Source: Candidatus Kaiserbacteria bacterium RIFCSPHIGHO2_01_FULL_54_36 (lineage in GTDB: Bacteria; Patescibacteriota; Minisyncoccia; Phycocordibacterales; UBA2100). From it: 64,000 nucleotides of DNA. Both the position numbers and the translations under genes were made by a program. Where the stretch lies: NCBI GenBank assembly GCA_001781105.1, contig MFKV01000006.1, positions 9,032 through 73,031 on the forward strand, given 5' to 3'. The first letter of the stretch is position 1; each line of letters opens with the position of its first letter. The notes beneath the pieces are model-generated. The model searched no databases. It was not told the DNA's origin and worked only from the letters and a program-made list of their open reading frames with translations. This document shows positions 4,266 to 37,758 of this stretch, one piece after another.

Positions 4266-5111
4266 TTGATACTTGACGGAATGCAGCCGCTCTCAAAGAG
4301 GAAGCGCCGCCTCTATCTCTATGGGCTCATATTGGTATTCGCTCTTTGTGTGCCTTTCGTCATGTTCTATGCCAACGGCTACCGCTTCAAAGGCGAGCAG
4401 GGATTTGTAAAAACTGGCAGCGTCATCATTTCGGTCCCCGAGACGAATGCGGTGGTCTCCTTAAACGGCGAGGAGGTAGGTGCCAGCGGCTTTCTTCGGC
4501 ACAGCTTTTACATAGATGATCTCACTCCTGGCGCCTATGCCGTCCTCGTGACGCGCGAAGGGGATTATCCGTGGCACCGCACGCTCATCGTTGAGCAGGA
4601 GCTCGTGACGGATGCCGAAGCATTCCTCGTGCCGCAAGAAATAGAGCCGATCCGGCTTGTGGTCTCCACGAGCACGGCGTCTTCGACGATGCGCGTTTCT
4701 CCAGCGACGTACGAAATGTATCGCCTCGCGTTTGCGCCTACTGCCACATCCACGGTACTCAACAGTGCTATGCGGCAGGGAGAGATCGTCGTCGTCGAAA
4801 AAGGAAATGTGCTCGTACGCCACACGGATCCAAGTGCCCTACCGCCGAGTCGTTATTGCACGCGCCCTTCAGTGTGTGTACAAGAAATTCCGATCGAAAG
4901 TGGGAAGCAACAAGCTATCAATGCGGCATTTTTCGGGGGAGGGGTAGTGTATGCCACGAGGGAAGGAGGAGTCTTCCTCGCGGAAGCTGATATTCGCCCG
5001 GCACCGGTCGTTGCACCCTTGTATTCCGGACGCAACGTGGATTTTCGTATCGTGAATGGACACCTCATCATCAAAGATGGGGTGGCACTCTACGAGATAG
5101 TGGAATTATAG
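4266..5111 (+). CDS. membrane-anchored PEGA-domain-like protein
   Basis: N-terminal TM helix. VISVPETNAVVSLNGEEVGASGF resembles a PEGA domain. Otherwise hypothetical. Confidence 0.4.
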   Translation: MILDGMQPLSKRKRRLYLYGLILVFALCVPFVMFYANGYRFKGEQGFVKTGSVIISVPETNAVVSLNGEEVGASGFLRHSFYIDDLTPGAYAVLVTREGDYPWHRTLIVEQELVTDAEAFLVPQEIEPIRLVVSTSTASSTMRVSPATYEMYRLAFAPTATSTVLNSAMRQGEIVVVEKGNVLVRHTDPSALPPSRYCTRPSVCVQEIPIESGKQQAINAAFFGGGVVYATREGGVFLAEADIRPAPVVAPLYSGRNVDFRIVNGHLIIKDGVALYEIVEL

Positions 5112-5270
5112 GTACTCGCTGGCATGTGTTTCTCCGGATACGGATTTTTCCTGCTGGAAAAATCCTCGGTTCTCACACCGCCGTGCTCGAAAGCCCCTCT
5201 GAAACACATGCCCGCTCGCCTAGAAAATGTCTTCGACGAGTTTGTTGGGAGGGAGTAGAATGGGGAACAC

Positions 5271-6011
5271 ATGCAAGAAACAAATCGTGGTCATATTCAT
5301 CCCATTTCGTCGCTCATCCGCGAGGCGAATCAGATCTTCTACGCGATGGGCTTCACCTTTGCCGACGGGCCGCTACTCGAATCGGAGTGGTACAACTTCG
5401 ACGCGCTCAATGTTCCCAAGGACCATCCCGCGCGCGACATGCAAGACACCTTTTTCATCAAAGATGAACCAGGCTGTGTCTTGCGCACGCATACCTCACC
5501 GGTGCAGGTGCGCTACATGGAGTCGCAGATGAAAGCAGGGATGCCGCCGCCGTACCGTATCATCGTGCCCGGCAAAGTATTTCGCAACGAGGCGACCGAT
5601 ATAACGCACGAGGCAGAATTTTTCCAAATAGAAGGACTTGCTGTTGGAGAAGATATCTCGCTCGCGCACCTCAAGGGAACCCTCGCACACTTTCTCAAGG
5701 AGCTCTTTAAAGGCGCATCGGTCGAGATACGGTTTCGCCCGAGCTTTTTTCCTTTTACCGAGCCGTCAGTGGAGGTGGATATGAGGGTTGTCGGCCCCCA
5801 TGTTCCAGAGAAGCTCCGCGATACGTGGATAGAAATGATGGGGGCGGGCATGGTACATCCCAGTGTCTTGAAGAATGCGGGAGTCGATCCCGAAAAGTAT
5901 CAGGGTTTTGCATTCGGCATGGGGCTCGATCGCCTCGCGATGCTTCGGTGGGGCATCGACGACGTGCGCCTCATGCACTCCGCCGATCTGCGGTTCGTCA
6001 ATCAGTTCTAG
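5271..6011 (+). CDS. pheS: phenylalanine--tRNA ligase alpha subunit (short, 246 aa)
   Basis: Class II catalytic motifs: FRNEATDITHEAEFFQIEG, GAGMVHPSVL, GFAFGMGLDRLAML. Lacks the N-terminal coiled-coil extension. Confidence 0.85.
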   Translation: MQETNRGHIHPISSLIREANQIFYAMGFTFADGPLLESEWYNFDALNVPKDHPARDMQDTFFIKDEPGCVLRTHTSPVQVRYMESQMKAGMPPPYRIIVPGKVFRNEATDITHEAEFFQIEGLAVGEDISLAHLKGTLAHFLKELFKGASVEIRFRPSFFPFTEPSVEVDMRVVGPHVPEKLRDTWIEMMGAGMVHPSVLKNAGVDPEKYQGFAFGMGLDRLAMLRWGIDDVRLMHSADLRFVNQF

Positions 6012-13861: not shown

Positions 13862-15703
13862 ATGAATACAGTGCAAATGGCGTTCAGAAAATACTGGGCG
13901 ATTTTCTTTTTTATAGGTGTTGTTGCATCCGTAATCGCATTTCTTGAAATAGCACCATTGACGGTATCGTCGACTTCTCACAGTGTTTTGGGAACCCATG
14001 TCTTATATGCCGATGGTGACGGAGGAGGCGATGGTGGTGGCGATGGCGGTGGAGATGGTGGCGGAGATGGTGGCGGAGATGGCGGTGGAGATGGAGGAGG
14101 TGATGGCGGTGGAGATGGTGGCGGAGATGGCGGAGGCGACGGAGGCGGTGATGGCGGAGGCGACGGAGGCGGTGACGGAGGAGGCGATGGTGGTGGTGAT
14201 GGCGGAGGTTGTGTCAGAAACTGCATCCCTGTGACGCCCCCTGGCTGCATCATTATCATCAAAGAAACGTTCGATGCGCAAGGCAATCCTATTACACCAG
14301 TCGCGCAGTTTACGTTTCGGCTCGACAATTCGCGCACTGCCCAAAACGACGCTTCGGGGAGAGTGACATTCACGAATGTGTCTGCGGGCTTCCATTCGGT
14401 CTCGGAGATCGTGCCGTCTGGCTGGACTCTTTTCTCGGTCACCCCACAAAACGGCTCCGTGTTTGTGAGCTCTGGGGTGAATTGCGCAACGGTAGTCTTC
14501 AAAAACAGGCAAACTGTCCCACCACAGAGCTGCATCACGGTGATCAAAGAAACCTACGATACACAGGGCAATCCTATTACACCGGTCGCGCAATTTACGT
14601 TCAGTCTCGACGGGGTTCGCACGATACAAAACGACGGCTCAGGTCGCGCAACGTTCAACAACGTGTTGCCCGGCAGCCATCAAATTACAGAGCAGGTCCC
14701 CCTTGGCTGGACGCTTTTTTCGGTGACGCCAACAAACGGGATCGTCCAGGTTACTTCTGGCACCAATTGTGCGGCGGTTATTTTCAAGAACAGGCAAACG
14801 ATCCCGCAATGTCCACCCGGCCAGGTCGGCACGTACCCAAATTGTCACGAGCAGCAATGTCCACCCGGTCAGATCGGTACCTATCCCAATTGCAGCATTC
14901 CACAGTGCCCACCGGGACAGACGGGAGTCTATCCCAACTGTATTCCCAACCAGTGTCCTCCGGGCCAGATCGGGACCTACCCCAATTGCAGCATTCCACA
15001 GTGCCCACCTGGCCAAACGGGGACGTATCCGTACTGCATCCCAAATCAGTGTCCGAGCGGCTACACGGGTACCTATCCAAATTGTTACCCGCCGCAGTGC
15101 CCTTCAGGCTACATAGGCACGTATCCAAGTTGTTACCCACCTCAACAAAATCTATACTGCACGCTCACCGCAAGCATCACCTCGATATACAATGGCCAGG
15201 CAGTCTATCTCTCCTGGACTTCGACGGGCGCTACCTCGGCATCCCTCGATTCCGTGGGCCAAGTCGGCGTATTCGGCTCGTACACGATCTACCCGCAACA
15301 CTCACGCGTATACACGCTCACCGTATACGATTCACAGGGTCGCTCCAACAATTGCCAGGTCTCGATCTCGGTGAACCCGGCGTACATCCCGCCTCCTCCG
15401 TACTTCCCGCCACCGCCACAATATATTCCACCACCACCTCAGTACATCCCGCCTCCGCAATATATCCCGCCGCCTACTTCCCAGATCTCTCTAGTACAGA
15501 TCCCATACACCGGGTTCGACTTCGGACCGGTAGGGAATGCGATCTACTGGCTCGCCATGCTCCTCTTCGCCTTTGCGCTGACCTACCTACTCCTGTACTA
15601 CCAAGGTGGGTTCTGGGTTCTTATGGTCGTCGCGATCCGATACCAGGCGCAACTGTGGGAGTTGGGACTGCAAAGAATAGGCCTCTCCTCAAGGACGCAA
15701 TAG
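13862..15703 (+). CDS. large surface protein: signal anchor, (DGGG)x26 repeat, two CnaB-type domains, eight CPPGQxGTYPNC repeats, conserved C-terminal module, PPPPQYI repeats, IPYTG sortase-type sorting signal
   Basis: Domains read directly from the translation. CnaB-like …RTAQNDASGRVTFTNVSAGFHSVSEIVPSGWTL… appears twice. The C-terminus SLVQIPYTGFDFGPVGNAIYWLAMLLFAFALTYLLLYY is an LPXTG-like motif plus a hydrophobic segment. A sortase gene lies downstream. Confidence 0.7.
   Translation: MNTVQMAFRKYWAIFFFIGVVASVIAFLEIAPLTVSSTSHSVLGTHVLYADGDGGGDGGGDGGGDGGGDGGGDGGGDGGGDGGGDGGGDGGGDGGGDGGGDGGGDGGGDGGGDGGGCVRNCIPVTPPGCIIIIKETFDAQGNPITPVAQFTFRLDNSRTAQNDASGRVTFTNVSAGFHSVSEIVPSGWTLFSVTPQNGSVFVSSGVNCATVVFKNRQTVPPQSCITVIKETYDTQGNPITPVAQFTFSLDGVRTIQNDGSGRATFNNVLPGSHQITEQVPLGWTLFSVTPTNGIVQVTSGTNCAAVIFKNRQTIPQCPPGQVGTYPNCHEQQCPPGQIGTYPNCSIPQCPPGQTGVYPNCIPNQCPPGQIGTYPNCSIPQCPPGQTGTYPYCIPNQCPSGYTGTYPNCYPPQCPSGYIGTYPSCYPPQQNLYCTLTASITSIYNGQAVYLSWTSTGATSASLDSVGQVGVFGSYTIYPQHSRVYTLTVYDSQGRSNNCQVSISVNPAYIPPPPYFPPPPQYIPPPPQYIPPPQYIPPPTSQISLVQIPYTGFDFGPVGNAIYWLAMLLFAFALTYLLLYYQGGFWVLMVVAIRYQAQLWELGLQRIGLSSRTQ
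14012..14208 (+). repeat. 12-bp tandem repeat (GATGGNGGNGGN)x~16 encoding (DGGG)n
   Basis: Direct reading of near-identical 12-nt units with synonymous third-position variation. Confidence 0.85.
14806..15140 (+). repeat. 39-bp tandem coding repeat x8 (QCPPGQIGTYPNCSIP)
   Basis: Eight consecutive units with conserved Cys spacing. Confidence 0.8.
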
Positions 15704-18123: not shown

Positions 18124-18828
18124 ATGCAGCTCATCCTCACCCTTCTGGCGTTCGTGGCTGGCATAGCCACCGCGATCGCCATGCCCGCTACGTTCATTGC
18201 GATCCCGTACCTGAGCCAGGAAATGAGCCAGTACGTCACAATCCTCGTGGCGAATGGCGTTTTCGTGGGCGTCGCGTACGCGGTTCTCAATGCACTGGAT
18301 GCGACCCCACCCCAGACGAGCAAGTTCCTCTACTGGCTGAGTGCGGTCGGCTCGTTCATCCCGTGGCTCTCGCTCACGGGCACAACGATCTTCGTCACAC
18401 TCAACAGGTGGTCCGGCGGGCAACTGAACTCCCTGTCGGACATCAACGGTGCGATGGCACTGCTCTATGCGTTGACTGCCTTCGCCCAGCTCGACTTCTT
18501 CTACCTGCAGCGCCAGAAATGGCGGGCGCTGCGCAGGGGCGAGCATCGGGCACCAGACGCGCCCGCGCATGTCCCGGTCATCCCTCCCGCAACAACGGAC
18601 AACTGGGGCGGGGCGGTCGCGGCAATTGCCATGGTGCTGCTGATCGGCCTGGGTGTGTTGATCTACCAGCTGTACGGCTCCGGCGACTCATCCCAACAAA
18701 GCGCCGCAGGTCCGACGGTGACGTTGCCACCCATCGACAACACGCAGGCAAGTGTCCCGAGAGACAAGGGGCACAACGACAACCGTGGCGTCTGCGAGGT
18801 GTTTCCGGACGGAAGCCGCTTGTGCTGA
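18124..18828 (+). CDS. polytopic membrane protein, hypothetical
   Basis: Start chosen at MQLILTLLAFVAGIATAIAM. Five or six TM helices with a Gly/Ser-rich C-terminal tail. Confidence 0.45.
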   Translation: MQLILTLLAFVAGIATAIAMPATFIAIPYLSQEMSQYVTILVANGVFVGVAYAVLNALDATPPQTSKFLYWLSAVGSFIPWLSLTGTTIFVTLNRWSGGQLNSLSDINGAMALLYALTAFAQLDFFYLQRQKWRALRRGEHRAPDAPAHVPVIPPATTDNWGGAVAAIAMVLLIGLGVLIYQLYGSGDSSQQSAAGPTVTLPPIDNTQASVPRDKGHNDNRGVCEVFPDGSRLC

Positions 18829-18943: not shown

Positions 18944-19144
18944 TGCACACTAACGATTGCTTCGTTGGAATTCTCGAGACCCATCTTAGGCTGGTGCTCG
19001 AGAGTCCCTGTGAAGGGATATGATCTTTGTCAGAGTAGAGATATCGATGTAACGCGGAGGTTGTTATGCGCACGAACTAATTTCGTGCTCAGAAAGCCCT
19101 CGCGTTCTGCAGAAACCCTGCGAGGCCAACTCCGGAGAACTGTC

Positions 19145-19738: not shown

Positions 19739-21193
19739 ATGACAAATGCATCGATAAAGAATACGTTTGCAACTCTCGCTGTTGTCGCGCTTGCGATGGC
19801 GGTTTCTTTCGGCACATTTGCCACAATCGTGCGTGCGGACGATGATCTTGGCTACTATGGCACGTCTGAAAACTACTATGGCACGGACTCCAGTGACCTC
19901 GGCTACTACGGTACGTCCGATAACCTTGGGTATTGGGGAACCGACTCAGGTGATCTCGGTTACTACGGCACGTCCGACAACCTCGGCTATTTTGGCACTG
20001 ATTCTGGTGATCTTGGTTACTACGGCACCTCGGATAATCTCGGGTACTACGGTACTTCCGATAACGATCTCGGCTACTACGGCACGTCCGACAACCTCGG
20101 CTACTACGGAACTCAAGAAGAGGTTTTCGGCACGGATGTCTACGGTACTGATGTCATCGAAGAGCACGGCGTCGGATACTCGTATCACGAATATGAGAAC
20201 GATTTCTCGCAGAGCTACTCTTCGCCTTCCTGTTACTCTTGTTCCTCTTCTTCAAAGCCATTCAGCTTCTCGGCTCCTTCTACCTACTACCCGCCGAGCC
20301 GTCCTCAGAGCTATCCGGCTCCGCAGCCTCAGTCACAACCTCGTCCGCAGCAATTCCCGGTCTTCTATCCGCAGCAACAGCAGCAGCAACAGCAGCAACA
20401 GCAACAGGGAAGCGCGCAGCCGATCAACATCAACAACGTCAACAACAATAACAACGTCAACCAGAACACCAACACGAATCCGGTGACCGTGACGACGGTT
20501 ATACCTGTGACGCAGGCACCGATTACGTATCCGGTACAGTACGTCTACCCGCAACAGCCTGTCTATCCGACTCCTCCTGCCCCGAACCTCTACTGTGTCA
20601 TCTCTGTCTCGCCAAGCACGATCTCGAATGGTCAGGCAGCGTACCTCACGTGGAGCTCGACAGGTGCTACGAGCGCATGGCTCTCTGACGGAATCGGCAA
20701 TGTCTCGATCAACGGCTCACTCGCAGTTCGCCCGAACAACTCGAAGACCTATACACTTACGGTCTCTGGCTACGGCGGTACTCGTACCTGCAACGTCTAC
20801 GTCAGCGTCAACAATGCGTATCCGTACGTCTCACTCTCGCAGATCCCATACACAGGCTTTACCCTGGGGCCGCTCGGCAACGCGCTCTACTGGCTCTCGA
20901 TGCTCAGCTTCGCAGCCGCTGGTGCCTACCTCTTGGTTTACTACAAAGGCGGTGCATTCACGCTCGCCTCTGCAATGATCGGCCAGCGCTCGGTCAATCG
21001 CTCTGAAATAGAAGTGCCTGCAGGAGACGTAGAACCTATCGAAACTCCCGTAGAACCTACTCCGAGCCCGGTCCAGATGGAAATGCTTGAGAATCTCCCA
21101 ATCGCACCGGCCAGCTTCCGCTCCATCGACAGCATGAAGCTCATGCACGGTACCGAGGGCAGCGCTCCGCGCATCGTGATCACTCGCAACTAA
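19739..21193 (+). CDS. second IPYTG-type surface protein: signal peptide, (DLGYYGTSDN)x~10 repeats, poly-Q, Asn-rich tract, conserved C-terminal module, IPYTG signal
   Basis: C-terminal ~110 aa align with the 13862 protein (LYC..S.S.I.NGQA.YL.W.STGATSA … SL.QIPYTGF..GP.GNA.YWL.ML.FA…YLL.YY.GG). Low-complexity repeats are read directly. Confidence 0.65.
   Translation: MTNASIKNTFATLAVVALAMAVSFGTFATIVRADDDLGYYGTSENYYGTDSSDLGYYGTSDNLGYWGTDSGDLGYYGTSDNLGYFGTDSGDLGYYGTSDNLGYYGTSDNDLGYYGTSDNLGYYGTQEEVFGTDVYGTDVIEEHGVGYSYHEYENDFSQSYSSPSCYSCSSSSKPFSFSAPSTYYPPSRPQSYPAPQPQSQPRPQQFPVFYPQQQQQQQQQQQQGSAQPININNVNNNNNVNQNTNTNPVTVTTVIPVTQAPITYPVQYVYPQQPVYPTPPAPNLYCVISVSPSTISNGQAAYLTWSSTGATSAWLSDGIGNVSINGSLAVRPNNSKTYTLTVSGYGGTRTCNVYVSVNNAYPYVSLSQIPYTGFTLGPLGNALYWLSMLSFAAAGAYLLVYYKGGAFTLASAMIGQRSVNRSEIEVPAGDVEPIETPVEPTPSPVQMEMLENLPIAPASFRSIDSMKLMHGTEGSAPRIVITRN
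19838..20115 (+). repeat. 30-bp tandem coding repeat (DLGYYGTSDN)
   Basis: About nine or ten consecutive units. Confidence 0.75.
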
Positions 21194-29249: not shown

Positions 29250-29933
29250 GAATTCGGGACATTCGAGCAAAAGATCGGATACGATTTCAAAGATAAAGGT
29301 TTGCTTCAGCAAGCGTTTACGCATCGCTCGTATCTCAACGAAAATCGCACTTCAGGCGCGGAGCACAATGAACGCTTAGAATTCTTGGGAGACGCGGTCT
29401 TGGAGCTCGTCGTCACGGAATTCTTGTTTGCCAAGTACCCCGACAAACCCGAGGGCGATCTTACCGCCTATCGCGCAGCGCTCGTAAATACGCAGAGCAT
29501 ATCGGACGCTGCGACGAAGCTGGGGATGAACGAATACTTATTGCTCTCGCGCGGGGAAGCGCGCGATACCGGGCGCGCGCGGCAGATCATTTTGGCCAAC
29601 GCATTCGAGGCCCTCATCGGCGCCATATACCTCGATTCAGGCTACGCGGCCTCAAAGGATTTTATAGGGGTACAGCTTTTTCATAAGACTGACGAGGTGG
29701 TCTCGAAGCGCCTGTGGCAGGACGCCAAGAGCCGTTTGCAAGAAATTGCGCAGGAGCAAAAGGGCATTACCCCTACCTATGAAATGGTGAGCCAGACTGG
29801 GCCTGACCACGACAAACTATTCGTCGTTGCGGCCCACATCGGGAGTGAGCGCATAGCGACAGGCGAAGGCCGCTCAAAACAAGAGGCAGAACAAGATGCT
29901 GCGCAGAAAGCGCTTGCAGCGAAGGGGTGGTGA
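29247..29933 (+). CDS. rnc: ribonuclease III
   Basis: RNase III signature ERLEFLGDAVLELVV and a C-terminal dsRBD. Its ATG lies inside the right inverted repeat of the GIY-YIG element. Confidence 0.85.
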   Translation: MEFGTFEQKIGYDFKDKGLLQQAFTHRSYLNENRTSGAEHNERLEFLGDAVLELVVTEFLFAKYPDKPEGDLTAYRAALVNTQSISDAATKLGMNEYLLLSRGEARDTGRARQIILANAFEALIGAIYLDSGYAASKDFIGVQLFHKTDEVVSKRLWQDAKSRLQEIAQEQKGITPTYEMVSQTGPDHDKLFVVAAHIGSERIATGEGRSKQEAEQDAAQKALAAKGW

Positions 29934-30047
29934 GGGCGCTCGGCGGGGGATGCGTCCTCCGGGCACGCGATTTTCCTACTGAAAAATCGCTCGGGCTTCG
30001 CGCCGACGCGCTGCAGAGTCCCTCCGAACGCATCCCCCGCCTCGCTT
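29934..30047 (+). repeat. 115-bp structured repeat, copy 1 (directly after rnc stop)
   Basis: ~96% identical to 34114-34227. Nested hairpins GCGGGGGATGCGTCC…GAACGCATCCCCCGC and GCGATTTT…AAAATCGC. Confidence 0.7.
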
Positions 30048-30512
30048 GAAGTTGGAAAGAAAGTCAACACGTCGCAGCTGCGAAGGGCCTTCCTCAAGGC
30101 CCACCCCGTCCCTTGCTGAGAGTTGAAGAATGTGGAAAAAGACATATGTCCGTACTCACTTTGGTTTGGAAATTCACGTAATCTTTATCTACACCTTGCC
30201 CCTTGCGCCGGGCTGGCAATGGTGGCATTGTGATAGTAGGACTGATCGGTTCTGGTCGGTCCTAAAGGTCCGATAAGGACCTTTTGACTAGGGAGCAAAA
30301 CAATGGCTCGGCATCACGACACCGACTACACTGGTGTACCGCAGTTCGCACGGAGCGGCGTTATGGACGGCATCTTCTGGGTGATGCTTGCCATCGCGCT
30401 GATCGGTCCTGCGGCTGCGGCTGCGTTCAGCTGATCGAGCGAATCATGATGCGGCGGCGGGCTCCCCCCGGGGGGCCCGCCGATCGATTTTATTTTGATA
30501 CAATGAAGCCCA

Positions 30513-33747: not shown

Positions 33748-34113
33748 ATGGAACAAGATCAACAGTTTCTTGAATACGTAGTTAAAGCTTTGGCGGATCA
33801 TCCCGGCGACGTCAAAATTGCGCGCACAGTGGATGAGATGGGCGTGCTACTCACGCTCTCGGTGCACAAAGACGACATGGGCAAAGTCATCGGCCGCTCG
33901 GGCCAGACTGCAAAAGCGATACGCACGGTACTGCGCGTAGTCGGCATGAAAAATGAGGCACGCGTAAATCTCAAGATCGAGGAGCCAGAGGGAAGCGAGC
34001 GCCTGTCCGGCCAGGGCGGGATGGGAGGCGGCGGAGCGAGCGAGCGACCTTCTGAGCCCTACCAACGCGACACAACCGTGGATGATGTCATCAAGGATCT
34101 GAAAGGGGAGTAG
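33748..34113 (+). CDS. KH-domain RNA-binding protein (YlqC/UPF0109-like)
   Basis: VIGRSGQTAKAIRTVLRVVG has the KH GxxG motif. Conserved position between rpsP and trmD. Confidence 0.7.
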   Translation: MEQDQQFLEYVVKALADHPGDVKIARTVDEMGVLLTLSVHKDDMGKVIGRSGQTAKAIRTVLRVVGMKNEARVNLKIEEPEGSERLSGQGGMGGGGASERPSEPYQRDTTVDDVIKDLKGE

Positions 34114-34227
34114 GGGCGCTCGGCGGGGGATGCTTTCTCCGGGCACGCGATTTTCCTGCTGAAAAATCGCTCGGGCTTCGCGCCGACGCGCTGCAGAGTC
34201 CCTCCGAAAGCATCCCCCGCCTCGCTG
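34114..34227 (+). repeat. 115-bp structured repeat, copy 2 (directly after KH gene stop)
   Basis: Same element as 29934-30047. It differs by a paired G>T / C>A change that preserves the long stem. Confidence 0.7.
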
Positions 34228-34246
34228 GAGAAGAAAAAGAAAAGAT

Positions 34247-34894
34247 ATGCTTCACTTTCATATCGTTACGTTGTTTCCTGAATCCATCGAGCCGTATCTC
34301 AAGAGCTCGATCATTGGCCGCGCGCTCGCGGCGAGGAAAATAAAGATTTCATATTACGACCCTAAGAAGTTCACTCGGGACAAATATGGTCGCGTGGATA
34401 GGCGGCCATATGGCGGCGGACCCGGCATGGTGCTCGAGCCGGATGGAATGTTGCGCGCGGCTGAAAAGGCGGTCGGAAAGAAAAGGGGAGCTGAAAAGAT
34501 ATTTTTTGCTACCGACGGGGTGCTGTTTGACGAAGCGATGGCGAGAAAGCTCTCGAAGAAGAAAGACATTCTATTGATCTGCGGACACTACGAAGGTGTG
34601 GATGCGCGTGTGCAGAAAATATTGAAAGCAAAGAAAGTCTCCGTCGGTCCGTACGTGCTGACCGGCGGCGAGCTTCCAGCAGCTACGGTGATTGATGCCG
34701 TTACCCGCTTCGTTCCGGGAGTTTTAGGCAAAGCCGAATCACTCGAAGCCTCACGCGTATCGAGCCCCGAAGTTTACACGCGTCCGGAGGCCCTCATTTG
34801 GAAGGGTAGGAAATACAAGGTCCCCAAAGTACTCCTCTCCGGCCACCATGCTGAAATCGAGAAGTGGAAAAAGTCCCGAATCTCCGGAGGTTAA
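34247..34894 (+). CDS. trmD: tRNA (guanine37-N1)-methyltransferase
   Basis: TrmD SPOUT motifs (…YGGGPGMVL…, …LICGHYEGVD…). The last codons and stop (ISGG*) are encoded inside a REP-like palindrome. Confidence 0.85.
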   Translation: MLHFHIVTLFPESIEPYLKSSIIGRALAARKIKISYYDPKKFTRDKYGRVDRRPYGGGPGMVLEPDGMLRAAEKAVGKKRGAEKIFFATDGVLFDEAMARKLSKKKDILLICGHYEGVDARVQKILKAKKVSVGPYVLTGGELPAATVIDAVTRFVPGVLGKAESLEASRVSSPEVYTRPEALIWKGRKYKVPKVLLSGHHAEIEKWKKSRISGG

Positions 34895-34905
34895 ACCTCC
34901 GGGGA
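34879..34905. repeat. REP-like palindrome copy 1 (TCTCCGGAGGTTAAACCTCCGGGGA)
   Basis: Inverted repeat read directly. Overlaps the trmD stop and the RAYT stop. Confidence 0.7.
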
Positions 34906-35571
34906 ATACTCTCGGTAGTAATCGCGAGCGTCTTGAAGCATCTGGGAAAGATCCGGGAGCGAATCGTAGTATTCTTCGATTACTGGTCCGGTGATCTTTC
35001 GGGCTAAAGGATCTCTGCTGAAGAATTCCCTCGCACTTGAATACGGATATTCGAGAATTTGTGTGCGCATCTTTTTGATGTCGCACTTTCCCTGTTTCCA
35101 TTTTGGCTCAAACAACTCAGCGGGGTTCAAGATAACGTATGGTATTACTTGCTTCAGATACCGATCGTCGTCGATATGCTTTGCCTTATACGTACCTGCA
35201 AATAACGCTCCCGTCCGATCCCGTCGTGCATTGAAGTGCATTGTGTAGGCAGTAAATACTTTTTGCATGAACTTCGCTATCCCGCCGTCTTGAAGTTGTT
35301 GCAGCACAAAGTGCACGTGTGTCGGCATGAGCGAGAACGCCGCAATCTCGACAAGTGGTTTGCCTCGTTCTTGCGGATCACTCGCGAGGATCGATCGCAG
35401 ATCCCTGCGGTATCGGTCGGAGATAGCCTCGGTGTTGTCTCCGTTTGAAACGTATAAAAGCGACATAAAACGCTCGTAGTCGGCTTTCGACTCGAAAACC
35501 CTACGCTTGTCGACCCCTCTGTTGTAGCAGTGGTACCACTCCTCCGTCACGCATGGTGCTCTCGTTGCCAT
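34891..35571 (-). CDS. IS200-like / REP-associated tyrosine transposase (RAYT, Y1 HUH family)
   Basis: HUH motif MPTHVHFVL and catalytic Tyr region YPYSSAREF. Flanked on both sides by the same palindrome. Confidence 0.7.
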   Translation of the reverse strand: MATRAPCVTEEWYHCYNRGVDKRRVFESKADYERFMSLLYVSNGDNTEAISDRYRRDLRSILASDPQERGKPLVEIAAFSLMPTHVHFVLQQLQDGGIAKFMQKVFTAYTMHFNARRDRTGALFAGTYKAKHIDDDRYLKQVIPYVILNPAELFEPKWKQGKCDIKKMRTQILEYPYSSAREFFSRDPLARKITGPVIEEYYDSLPDLSQMLQDARDYYREYSPEV

Positions 35572-35588: not shown

Positions 35589-35617
35589 GAATCTCCGGAG
35601 GTTTAACCTCCGGAGAT
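35589..35617. repeat. REP-like palindrome copy 2 (AATCTCCGGAGGTTTAACCTCCGGAGATT, perfect)
   Basis: Read directly. Confidence 0.75.
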
Positions 35618-35892
35618 TGTGCACAAGCTCCTTGTGGCGATTTTACGAGGACCGACGTACAATAGGTCTTGTAGCACTCTTTGTTGCTGCCGAGTTCTTA
35701 CAATTGAAGAGCGAAAAGTAGCCTAAACCGCCGAGCAATCGGCGGCATGGCGAAAAGTCCAATGAAGCATGGAAAACCCATCATGGGATTGCTTCATTGG
35801 CCGTACGGGGAAACCCGTATGCTCGGCGCAAGCCGGGACCCGTGGTGGGCTTTGTGTTTTTGCTCGCCACGATAGTCAGTCAGGGAGCAGTT

Positions 35893-36945
35893 ATGCAAAG
35901 ACCAATACACTCACGACGCGCAAATCGCAAATCCCGAAAATGGCCGTCGGCAACTTTGGCGTTGGCAATTGTTCTTGTCGCGTTCGGGTCACTCGTACTT
36001 GGCTCGACGATTTTTGCCACTGCAAAAAATGCACAGCTTGCGGCGGCACTGCAGCCGTCTTCCTGCACAGGCGCGAAGAACGCAGGGTGTCCAAAGGAAG
36101 ATGCAAAAAATACGTACAAGTGCCCGGTCTCGCAGGGGAAATCAAAAGATAAAGTGCCAAAAAACTGTGTCTTGAATAAAGTCTGTTCAGAGAAAGGAGG
36201 CGCGAGCGGGAAGACAATAATGGGTACCTGTGCGTGTCCGGAGATCTGTAAGGCCAATGCCGACGAAGCGACCGACAAGAATGATCCAGGAAAAGACAAA
36301 GGAAAAGGCGCAATGCCAACACTTCCGGGACAAGAAAGTGGCCAACCCCCGCAAATGCAGGGAATGCCAAAAGCAGAGCAAGTTGAACAGCTGCCACAGC
36401 AAACCCCAATCGCGCCAAACAGCGCTGCGACACCGCCACCAGCTGAGAATAAATCTTGGGCTGGCAATGCTTGGGACACCATTCAAAGATTCGCCGGTAT
36501 TGAACCCGCGTCGGTTGATCCGCAAGCGGTGGAAAACATCGAACTCGGCAATGTGTCGGACGATCTAAACAGTCGCCCGCCGATTGCGGAGGGTCGCACA
36601 TTTGATGCTGGCGAACAAGCAAATTATGACGATACGACGGGCATGTATCAGTCGTCTGAGCCTACGCCAAAGACTTCCGACAATATTCCCGACCCCCCTC
36701 CTGCATACGACAATTCTAATTCGACATTCGCTTCATCTGAACAGAGACCTTTCTATTTCGAGAATCTATCGCCTGACGCTAGGGAGATTCATGTTTATAC
36801 AGACGCCGATGGAAAAATCCGCGACATCACTTGGAGCGATTTACCTGATGTCTTTCGAAGGAACATAGGATCTCTCTTATACAATCACCCCTTTACGCAA
36901 GGTGTCATTATTAGACCATGGTCATGGCTTACTAGTTTCTTCTAA
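35893..36945 (+). CDS. membrane-anchored Cys-rich secreted protein, hypothetical
   Basis: Start at MQRPIHS…, TM ATLALAIVLVAFGSLVLG. Cys-rich then Pro/Gln-rich low-complexity. Lower GC. Confidence 0.45.
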   Translation: MQRPIHSRRANRKSRKWPSATLALAIVLVAFGSLVLGSTIFATAKNAQLAAALQPSSCTGAKNAGCPKEDAKNTYKCPVSQGKSKDKVPKNCVLNKVCSEKGGASGKTIMGTCACPEICKANADEATDKNDPGKDKGKGAMPTLPGQESGQPPQMQGMPKAEQVEQLPQQTPIAPNSAATPPPAENKSWAGNAWDTIQRFAGIEPASVDPQAVENIELGNVSDDLNSRPPIAEGRTFDAGEQANYDDTTGMYQSSEPTPKTSDNIPDPPPAYDNSNSTFASSEQRPFYFENLSPDAREIHVYTDADGKIRDITWSDLPDVFRRNIGSLLYNHPFTQGVIIRPWSWLTSFF

Positions 36946-36963: not shown

Positions 36964-37521
36964 ATGAAAAATCTAAATCAATTTTCTCCGCCTCCGTACG
37001 CAAGATCTGGAGACGAGACTGAGAACCAAAAAACGCTCGACGCACGAGAAAGACTTGAGGCGGACATGCATGAGATGGGAGCAATGTACCAAGCGTATCT
37101 TGAAAATCCGGGAACATTTATCGAATCGTACAAACCGATTGGCGGTGAAATCGCAGAAATGTTTGCGGGATTTGCCGAAGACGGTATAACGCCAGAGATG
37201 ATACTGGAAATAGCGAACGAGAGGGCTGCTGTGAAAGAAAGAATTGCCGTGTTTCAATCTACCCTTGCGGCAATGAGAGATGAGGAATTTGCCAAAATAC
37301 AGAGTCTGCGACACGTGCCTCCGAGATCCGTGCAAATTGCAGACAAATATGGCCAGGCCAATAGAGATACAAAATTTGAAGGGGAGAAACCATATGAAGG
37401 TCAATCTCTGGATTTCTACAAACACGATACATGGCGCTTGGAGCAAGAGTTGCGGCAGAGAGCGGTAACTGCTGAATACGAAAAGAGGAGGAGGCGAGGC
37501 ACTGAATCTCCGGAGGTTTAA
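36964..37521 (+). CDS. hypothetical protein (lower GC); last codons supplied by REP-like palindrome
   Basis: 185-aa ORF ending ESPEV*, encoded by GAATCTCCGGAGGTTTAA. Confidence 0.4.
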   Translation: MKNLNQFSPPPYARSGDETENQKTLDARERLEADMHEMGAMYQAYLENPGTFIESYKPIGGEIAEMFAGFAEDGITPEMILEIANERAAVKERIAVFQSTLAAMRDEEFAKIQSLRHVPPRSVQIADKYGQANRDTKFEGEKPYEGQSLDFYKHDTWRLEQELRQRAVTAEYEKRRRRGTESPEV

Positions 37522-37527
37522 CCTCCC
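37504..37527. repeat. REP-like palindrome copy 3 (degenerate)
   Basis: GAATCTCCGGAGGTTTAACCTCCCAAG. Confidence 0.6.
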
Positions 37528-37758
37528 AAGTTGTTACGTTTGGAATCGCGCGACGGCACGTAATTTCATTATTGTCAAGGTTGACCATGCGGCATCCAGC
37601 ATATATACTCCCGACACATTTGCTGTTAGCTGATTGAGTCACTGTTGCGCTTTTCAAGCAAAGGGGAGGAGGCGTCGAAAGATGCGTTTTCATAAGAAAA
37701 TTTAATAACGGTTCTCACACCTAGGTGCCGCAGACACCTATGGATAGCTTGTTGTAAA

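Follow-up and report, generated by a model that had tools for sequence, protein, structure and literature searches.

A putative lineage-restricted family of small structured palindromic repeats behind stop codons in Candidatus Kaiserbacteria

Copies of the element in the window

In the window, which is the whole 64-kb stretch of DNA analysed here, a palindromic element of ~105–115 nt was found behind three genes. The copies and the genes around them are as follows.

5112–5220, plus strand: copy 3, diverged, directly 3' of the stop codon TAG (5109–5111) of the ORF at 4266–5111; covariance-model score 79–108 bits
29247–29933, plus strand: rnc, encoding RNase III, upstream of copy 1; its C-terminus, KGW plus stop, is the same in relatives without the element
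29934–30047, plus strand: copy 1, directly 3' of the rnc stop codon TGA (29931–29933); covariance-model score 125.7–137.8 bits
33748–34113, plus strand: KH-domain (KhpA-like) gene, upstream of copy 2; relatives conserve its C-terminus, KGE plus stop
34114–34227, plus strand: copy 2, directly 3' of the KH stop codon TAG (34111–34113); covariance-model score 128.8–141.2 bits
34247–34894, plus strand: trmD, downstream of copy 2, with its ATG at 34247 after a 20-nt spacer

Copies 1 and 2 are direct repeats with a spacing of 4180 bp. Five of the 114 positions differ between them, and the resulting identity of 95.6% agreed with the ~96% given in a preliminary description of this DNA. A 57-nt core was present exactly twice in the window, where zero chance matches were expected from shuffles of the window. 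By element position, the differences are 21 (G/T), 23 (C/T), 45 (A/G), 96 (C/A), and 114 (T/G), the last being the final base. Positions 21 and 96 pair with each other in the outer stem, as G-C in copy 1 and T-A in copy 2, and the C.A mismatch at position 23 of copy 1 is a T-A pair in copy 2. The G>T change matched by C>A had been read as compensatory; in a simulation with four random substitutions, at least one compensated pair arose in 1.1% of the runs, so that the chance of such a match is about 0.01. The nested hairpins proposed for both copies were likewise recovered, with z = −3.9 to −5.5 against dinucleotide shuffles.

Both copies were base-for-base the same in ~20 independent assemblies (NCBI, ENA, and JGI), and therefore they are not an assembly artefact. 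A protein identical to the RNase III was encoded on contig MFMB01000017.1 (GCA_001781725.1), where the identical KH protein was not found; the copies on this contig are 4140 bp apart, compared with 4180 bp in the window, and no smc or KH gene is called, suggesting either a 40-bp difference or an assembly defect of the record. In the protein search, the KH homologues carried Kaiserbacteria names; on this evidence, the source was assigned to a Candidatus Kaiserbacteria known from aquifer metagenomes.

The start of the element was revised. It had been placed inside the last codons of the upstream genes, with the consequence that the element would also shape the C-termini of RNase III and the KH protein. 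The shared unit instead begins right after the stop codons (TGG TGA followed by GGGCGCTCG in rnc; GAG TAG followed by GGGCGCTCG in the KH gene), and the upstream likeness of the two copies (AAGGGGTGGTGA and AAAGGGGAGTAG) consists only of the native codons for KGW plus stop and KGE plus stop. The close KH homologues all end in DLKGE or DLKSE. Relatives without the element at the site (loci L059, L064, L067, L068, L070, and L073) have the same C-termini, so the element does not shape them.

Copy 3 was missing from the preliminary description. It shows 62–64% identity to copies 1 and 2, its outer-stem arms are CTGGCATGTGTTTC and GAAACACATGCCCG, and pheS (5271) lies ~50 nt downstream.

A conserved fold in ten family members

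Diverged homologues were first read in the spacers after rnc and the KH gene of related genomes, where the outer-stem sequences were entirely different and the layout was the same. A covariance-model search identified ten distinct members with scores of about 34–130 bits and E-values of 1e-5 to 1e-28. Three are in the window (model bounds 5106–5226, 29930–30052, and 34110–34232), and a search of the 64 kb with filters off returned exactly these three copies. The other seven are in syntenic loci of related Kaiserbacteria (numbered between L059 and L088): L062 and L083 after rnc, and L064, L068, L072, L073, and L083 after the KH gene. These loci were all fetched via KH-protein homologues, so the sampled sites are biased and the predominance of KH and rnc sites is partly a sampling effect; copy 3, between the ORF at 4266–5111 and pheS, indicates that other sites are used. 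All ten members lie 2–7 nt 3' of a stop codon, and their orientation matches that of the genes on either side. The preceding stop codon is TAG in seven members (including 5109–5111 and 34111–34113), TGA in three (including 29931–29933), and TAA in none, and the next base is G in nine of ten. In the same genes without the element, the stop is TAA in six of nine cases (hypergeometric p ~0.003, a value that ignores shared ancestry).

When each member was folded alone, the three-way junction was common to all ten (z = −3.5 to −10). From 5' to 3', the element consists of (G/A)CTCG, the first arm of the outer stem P1, a short internal loop with a small continuation helix, the hairpin P2, a junction bearing CTCG, the hairpin P3, the return strand, and CTCGC(T/C). 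The parts are placed as follows in copy 1.

29938–29942, plus strand: 5' flank motif, conserved as (G/A)CTCG in the family alignment
29942–29957, plus strand: P1 5' arm, GGCGGGGGATGCGTCC; equivalent to 34122–34137 in copy 2
29967–29990, plus strand: P2 hairpin, GCGATTTTCC-TACT-GAAAAATCGC; equivalent to 34147–34170 in copy 2
30000–30011, plus strand: P3 hairpin, GCGC-CGAC-GCGC; equivalent to 34180–34191 in copy 2
30026–30041, plus strand: P1 3' arm, GAACGCATCCCCCGCC; equivalent to 34206–34221 in copy 2
30041–30046, plus strand: 3' flank motif, conserved as CTCGC(T/C) in the family alignment; CTCG occurs again in the junction before P3

P1 is 14–21 bp long and near mismatch-free; its sequence drifts while the pairing is kept. 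In copy 2 it is a perfect helix of 16 bp, and in copy 1 the sole mismatch, C29956 opposite A30027, corresponds to G.U on the minus strand. P2 is a hairpin of 7–10 bp with a conserved C-UGCU-G loop in most members. Its stem is AU-rich in most members and GC-rich in L072 and L073 (CUGCCGC/GCGGCAG in L072), and thus covaries. P3 is a GC-rich hairpin of 4 bp.

The covariance model comprises 121 positions and 35 pairs. In the model alignment of the ten members, 92.1% of the cells were standard pairs, and 29 of the 35 pairs had changed on both sides. None of 500 shuffles reached these values, and slid registers were 36–49% paired with 9–12 two-sided pairs. The alignment was fitted to the model and hence favours structure; the P1 and P2 helices are still obvious in every raw sequence. 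A structural constraint on the element is thus well supported, and the earlier proposal that the fold rather than the sequence is conserved, for which a covariance model over further copies had been suggested as a check, was borne out by these ten members. Apparently compensatory changes in palindromes can also come from hairpin-templated repair without selection, and we counted this against our best explanation.

Among the syntenic relatives, the element was absent from both sites in L059 and L067, from the KH site in L070, and from the site after rnc in L064, L068, and L073. The small ORFs that replace it in L059 and L067 matched no Pfam family. Across species, the KH-trmD spacer holds at least three subfamilies of the element. 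Unrelated palindromes fill this spacer in other Kaiserbacteria (L062, 10382–10480; L088, 995–1131), and in the L088 spacer, too, the antisense strand folds better (−58 versus −48.5 kcal/mol). The spacer seems to be a hotspot for palindromes.

Known families did not account for the element. Rfam 15 at the gathering threshold returned only a LOOT RNA and two tRNAs in the whole window, all outside the element; at E ≤ 10, the element region gave only hairpin-type miRNA noise of ~16 bits, and nothing matched in the loci of seven relatives. The hammerhead and other known ribozyme classes were rejected, as Rfam gave no match and CUGCUGA forms part of a hairpin loop and not of a junction. No protein matched when all open frames of the element were searched, indicating no coding potential, and BLAST against plasmids and phages gave no match to the element. 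A scan of a metagenome collection, in which the source genome is not included, with a 20-mer from the core gave two hits, both unrelated. A scan of viral contigs with a gapped family pattern gave one partial hit, which was rejected because it lies inside a coding sequence. In a literature search on repeats or structured RNAs of the candidate phyla radiation (CPR), to which the Kaiserbacteria belong, nothing relevant was found.

A scan of species-representative genomes, which do not include the source genome, for two 12-nt arms returned only singleton palindromes and a repeat of Thauera (Thauera sinica, Thauera sp. 2A1, and related Betaproteobacteria MAGs; L021–L056). The Thauera repeat is a 109-nt palindrome with a perfect stem, present in at least 20 copies in T. 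sinica, and has a 13-nt arm, GGCGGGGGATGCG, in common with the window copies. It was rejected as a family member, as no significant similarity extends to its interior (z ≤ 2.9 in alignments; at most 17 bits with E ≥ 0.08 from the covariance model), and the arm match is probably due to chance or convergence. The element family is previously undescribed, is not a known RNA family, and has so far been found only in Candidatus Kaiserbacteria.

Copying, transcription, and the preferred strand

The relationships among the copies were compared with those of the genes that they follow. Within the window, the copies after rnc and the KH gene are 96% identical at unrelated sites. The window KH copy shows 42–66% identity to the KH-site copies of relatives, while the KH genes themselves are 68–76% identical at the DNA level. 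Same-site copies in related genomes belong to different subfamilies, and L073 carries the 5' half of an L068-type copy, through the P2 loop, followed by a complete copy of another subfamily. The high likeness within a genome against the low likeness at the same site, the pattern of presence and absence, and the nested copy in L073 point to a repeat that is copied and turns over rather than one inherited regulatory RNA. No clean pair of empty and filled sites was found among the relatives' loci. After rnc, the window and L062 have copies with 72% identity, a value close to that of the flanking genes; this likeness and the conserved loop and junction nucleotides fit long-term retention for a host function.

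On these grounds, we consider it somewhat probable, and more so than any other reading, that the element is a small duplicative or mobile palindromic repeat of the REP/REPIN/ERIC/MITE kind that is kept by its single-strand fold. Its propagation or maintenance would depend on this fold and not on conserved terminal sequences. In these very compact genomes, the short spacer behind a stop codon would be the only place where such a family survives. Gene ends in these genomes also carry other palindromic elements and a hairpin-flanked Y1-transposase gene, so the location appears to be a tolerated one.

Within the same broad class, a classical MITE, that is, a deletion derivative of a DDE-transposase insertion sequence whose terminal inverted repeats are recognised as double-stranded DNA, is very improbable. 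The element is small, non-coding, and multi-copy, and its terminal inverted repeats of 14–21 bp would suit such an origin. However, the interior loops are conserved whereas the arms vary more than any other part of the element, all members have a single orientation, and no insertion sequence with matching ends was found in ~180 kb of Kaiserbacteria DNA. Nor is there a consistent target-site duplication: the left and right outer bases differ in most members, and only the internal CTCG repeats. The candidate duplications TGA...TGA of copy 1 and TAG...TAG of copy 3 were not upheld in other members.

The element was next considered at the level of the transcript. A repeated Rho-independent terminator, one of the functions that had been suggested, would agree with a very stable GC-rich stem directly after genes. 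However, neither strand has a U-tract behind the stem, where the bases read TCGCTTGAAG and TCGCTGGAGA, and the terminator scan did not call the element. At the KH sites of the window and its relatives, trmD starts ~20–30 nt after the element; in the window, the copy lies inside the rpsP-KH-trmD operon, where the 20-nt spacer leaves no room for a promoter and trmD is therefore co-transcribed through the element. Being transcribed in the operon, the element cannot be a strong terminator. In addition, a canonical intrinsic terminator is present at 30455–30482 on the plus strand, consisting of a 12-bp GC stem and then a T-run ~30 nt before the smc start, which indicates that the genome uses ordinary terminators. 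From the missing U-tract and the position of the trmD start, we concluded that the element is not an intrinsic terminator, and we regard this reading as the least credible of all those weighed here. A promoter scan found no sigma-70-like promoter in or beside the element. Between rnc and smc, a non-coding block at ~30167–30330 (ATTTCACGTAATCTTTATC...GGCATTGTGATAG...) is conserved between species (~6886–7050 in L064) and may represent a promoter, a leader, or a small gene; downstream of it, a 43-aa ORF (~30303–30434) is called in many assemblies.

The two strands of the element were not equivalent. Among the 343 cells of the alignment, the non-Watson-Crick cells on the gene-sense strand were 15 A.C (17 when a P2 pair that is unpaired in the model is included) versus 3 G.U, an asymmetry that rests on ~12 independent events. 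Read on the complementary strand, an A.C of the sense strand becomes a G.U. For functional RNAs, the reverse ratio of G.U to A.C is the norm on their own strand, and deamination of the non-transcribed strand would push the asymmetry the other way. In free folding, the minus strand had the lower energy in nine of ten members. With the mirrored consensus structure, it was lower in eight of ten, and the other two were within 0.1 kcal/mol. The summed energies were −443 kcal/mol for the minus and −407 kcal/mol for the plus strand, and those of the alignment consensus were −57.3 and −49.5, respectively. We therefore propose, with moderate confidence, that the fold under selection may be that of the strand antisense to the genes. 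Such selection hints at single-stranded DNA instead of the mRNA, with an antisense RNA as the less likely alternative. A DNA structure, for which the preliminary description had also allowed, now appears at least as likely as an RNA. The direction of replication could not be read from GC skew, which was uninformative at the scale of the 64-kb window.

A cis-acting structured RNA on the sense mRNA, in the 3' UTR or between cistrons, would have a host function as an RNase III site, as a 3'-exonuclease barrier setting cistron stabilities, or as a stop-proximal hairpin that stalls ribosomes; we regard it as possible but rather doubtful. The strong covariation, the conserved loop and junction nucleotides, the gene orientation of 10/10 members at 2–7 nt past the stop codon, the certain co-transcription across the 20-nt KH-trmD spacer, and the downstream ribosome-binding site just outside the fold are all in its favour, and P1, as a near-perfect helix of 14–21 bp, would suit RNase III. 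REP sequences of E. coli located within ~15 nt of stop codons reportedly stall terminating ribosomes. However, the 3 G.U cells against 15–17 A.C are the reverse of what is seen in functional RNAs, and the antisense strand folds better. The genes beside the element (rnc, KH, and a membrane ORF next to pheS) are unrelated in function, the corresponding sites of close relatives are free of it, and the near-identical copies within a genome, together with the nested copy, indicate copying and not inheritance.

If the element is instead a copied repeat, as we prefer, its selected fold would more likely be the single-stranded DNA of the mRNA-complementary strand, since that strand pairs better, and a structure-specific enzyme would act on this fold. 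A candidate class of enzyme is encoded directly beside trmD.

34879–34905 and 35592–35618: inverted 26-nt hairpins (TCTCCGGAGGTTWAACCTCCGG) flanking the Y1 gene, unrelated to the 110-nt element
34891–35571, minus strand: divergent Y1/HUH (IS200/RAYT-like) transposase gene, 26.5 bits to Pfam Y1_Tnp

HUH (Y1) transposases cut single-stranded DNA at hairpins. With the RAYT model, which has a cut-off of 80, the Y1 protein of the window scored 33 bits. Because its gene is flanked by a different hairpin family, a link between Y1 and the element is offered here as a hypothesis only.

The Y1 hairpins were observed in their own right. A third 26-nt hairpin is located 2 kb off at 37507–37531, and the TTAA(A) loop of the left hairpin holds the stop codons of both convergent genes (trmD TAA, 34892–34894; Y1 TAA on the other strand, 34891–34893). 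The relatives carry Y1-related genes at other positions and have their own hairpin versions (L073, ~5104–5124 and 5822–5844; L068, 5706–5760; L062, ~18320–18355 and 19035–19060), in which the GGTT(T/A)AACC core is conserved and the stems vary with the species, located around Y1 genes or directly after rnc. The GGTT(T/A)AACC hairpins and Y1 look like a REP/RAYT-like system of Kaiserbacteria that is separate from the 110-nt element. Between a hairpin of the Y1 gene and the ORF at 35797–36945, a full-length LOOT RNA (RF03000) was identified at 35720–35837 on the plus strand, with 93.8 bits (gathering score 46.4); the loci of seven relatives had no match to it. Elsewhere in the window, large ORFs contain in-frame tandem repeats with periods of 12, 48, and 57 nt (14003–14230, 14807–15046, and 19874–20112) and probably encode repetitive surface proteins.

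The functional unit may also be the antisense strand as such, either as a small antisense RNA or as a single-stranded DNA site for recombination or transposition, analogous to the bottom strand of attC or to an HUH hairpin. Both the energies and the asymmetry of the mismatches speak for the minus strand, the structure is kept while the sequence varies, the element stands immediately after ORFs in a fixed orientation, and these genomes have Y1 (HUH) transposase genes. The attC core sites (RYYYAAC/GTTRRRY) are absent, however, the neighbours are housekeeping genes rather than cassettes, the hairpins around the Y1 gene belong to another family, and the promoter scan gave no promoter-like site for antisense transcription. 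Furthermore, if the genes are co-directional with replication, the exposed lagging-strand template would be the sense strand. We consider this reading improbable. A new, strand-specific module of single-stranded DNA that is defined by its structure, in which the three-way junction is a "cassette end" that is recognised on the mRNA-complementary strand by a hairpin-specific enzyme (for example, a divergent Y1/HUH protein) and copies itself precisely behind the stop codons of essential genes in ultra-compact CPR genomes, is a speculative idea that we hold to be fairly unlikely; it would follow the logic of attC and REP with different sites and a different fold.

Comparison with known repeats and implications

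Our preferred reading, a copied repeat kept by its single-strand fold, was compared with described systems. REP/BIME and REPIN sequences with RAYT (E. coli and Pseudomonas) are also short non-coding intergenic palindromes at the 3' ends of genes, whose hairpin is kept by compensatory change; they too lack a target-site duplication and are co-transcribed with their neighbours, and hairpin-flanked Y1 HUH genes are present in these genomes as well. Unlike the REP, which is a hairpin of 20–40 nt or a doublet of two, the element is a three-way junction of 105–115 nt. It has the flank motif (G/A)CTCG and no 5' GTAG, and its copy number appears to be low (3 in the 64 kb searched) compared with the tens to hundreds of REP copies per genome. 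The Y1 gene of the window, unlike a RAYT gene, is flanked by the other 26-nt hairpin and not by inverted copies of the element. A REPIN consists of two inverted REP units that jointly make one long hairpin; in the element, the P1 arms are inverted repeats, but neither arm is by itself a REP-type hairpin, and the interior with P2 and P3 is asymmetric.

The ERIC/IRU sequences of Enterobacteria and Vibrio (~127-bp imperfect palindromes) are similar to the element in size and in their imperfect palindrome with a long stem and internal branches. They also occupy transcribed intergenic regions in operons and UTRs, where ERIC affects mRNA processing. As compared by description, no sequence relationship is apparent, and they belong to another phylum; ERIC occurs in both orientations, whereas the members found here have one orientation and stand next to a stop codon. 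The Correia elements of Neisseria (CREE/NEMIS) are likewise ~100–150 bp long and co-transcribed, with inverted-repeat ends, and their long end-hairpin is cut by RNase III. By analogy, RNase III cutting of the hairpin would be the most plausible consequence of the element at the RNA level. The 26-bp conserved terminal repeats, TA target duplication, IHF site, and promoter elements of Correia were not seen in the element.

Integron attC sites resemble the element in their size range (57–141 bp), their location after an ORF stop in a fixed orientation, the conservation of structure over sequence, and a best-folding strand that is complementary to the coding strand. In contrast to attC, the element is without the R''/R' core sites (RYYYAAC/GTTRRRY) and ends in GCTCG/CTCGCT in all members, its flank motifs being direct rather than inverted repeats. 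The neighbours examined were rnc, smc, rpsP, KH, trmD, and pheS and not cassettes, and no integron integrase was identified among them.

Here, we propose as the best reading that the element represents a new family of small, structured palindromes that is confined to one lineage and belongs with repeats of the REP/ERIC/MITE type. Its propagation may depend on single-stranded DNA. As a side effect, its P1 stem (16–21 bp), being transcribed within operons, would probably also block exonucleases or attract RNase III on the mRNA.

CPR (Patescibacteria) genomes, which belong to ultra-small, uncultivated bacteria, are among the most compact, and to our knowledge almost nothing is known about their non-coding elements. 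The family suggests that a structured, self-copying repeat can persist in such genomes on the few bases after stop codons, even within essential operons (rnc-smc, rpsP-KH-trmD, and pheS). If the fold acts on the mRNA, it would provide a new handle on operon processing in uncultivated bacteria, with one copy located after the gene of RNase III itself and another after that of a KH RNA-binding protein. If it acts as single-stranded DNA, it would represent a new type of substrate of recombinases or transposases that are specific for hairpins. Either way, the covariance model can serve directly as a probe for a genome-wide census of the family.
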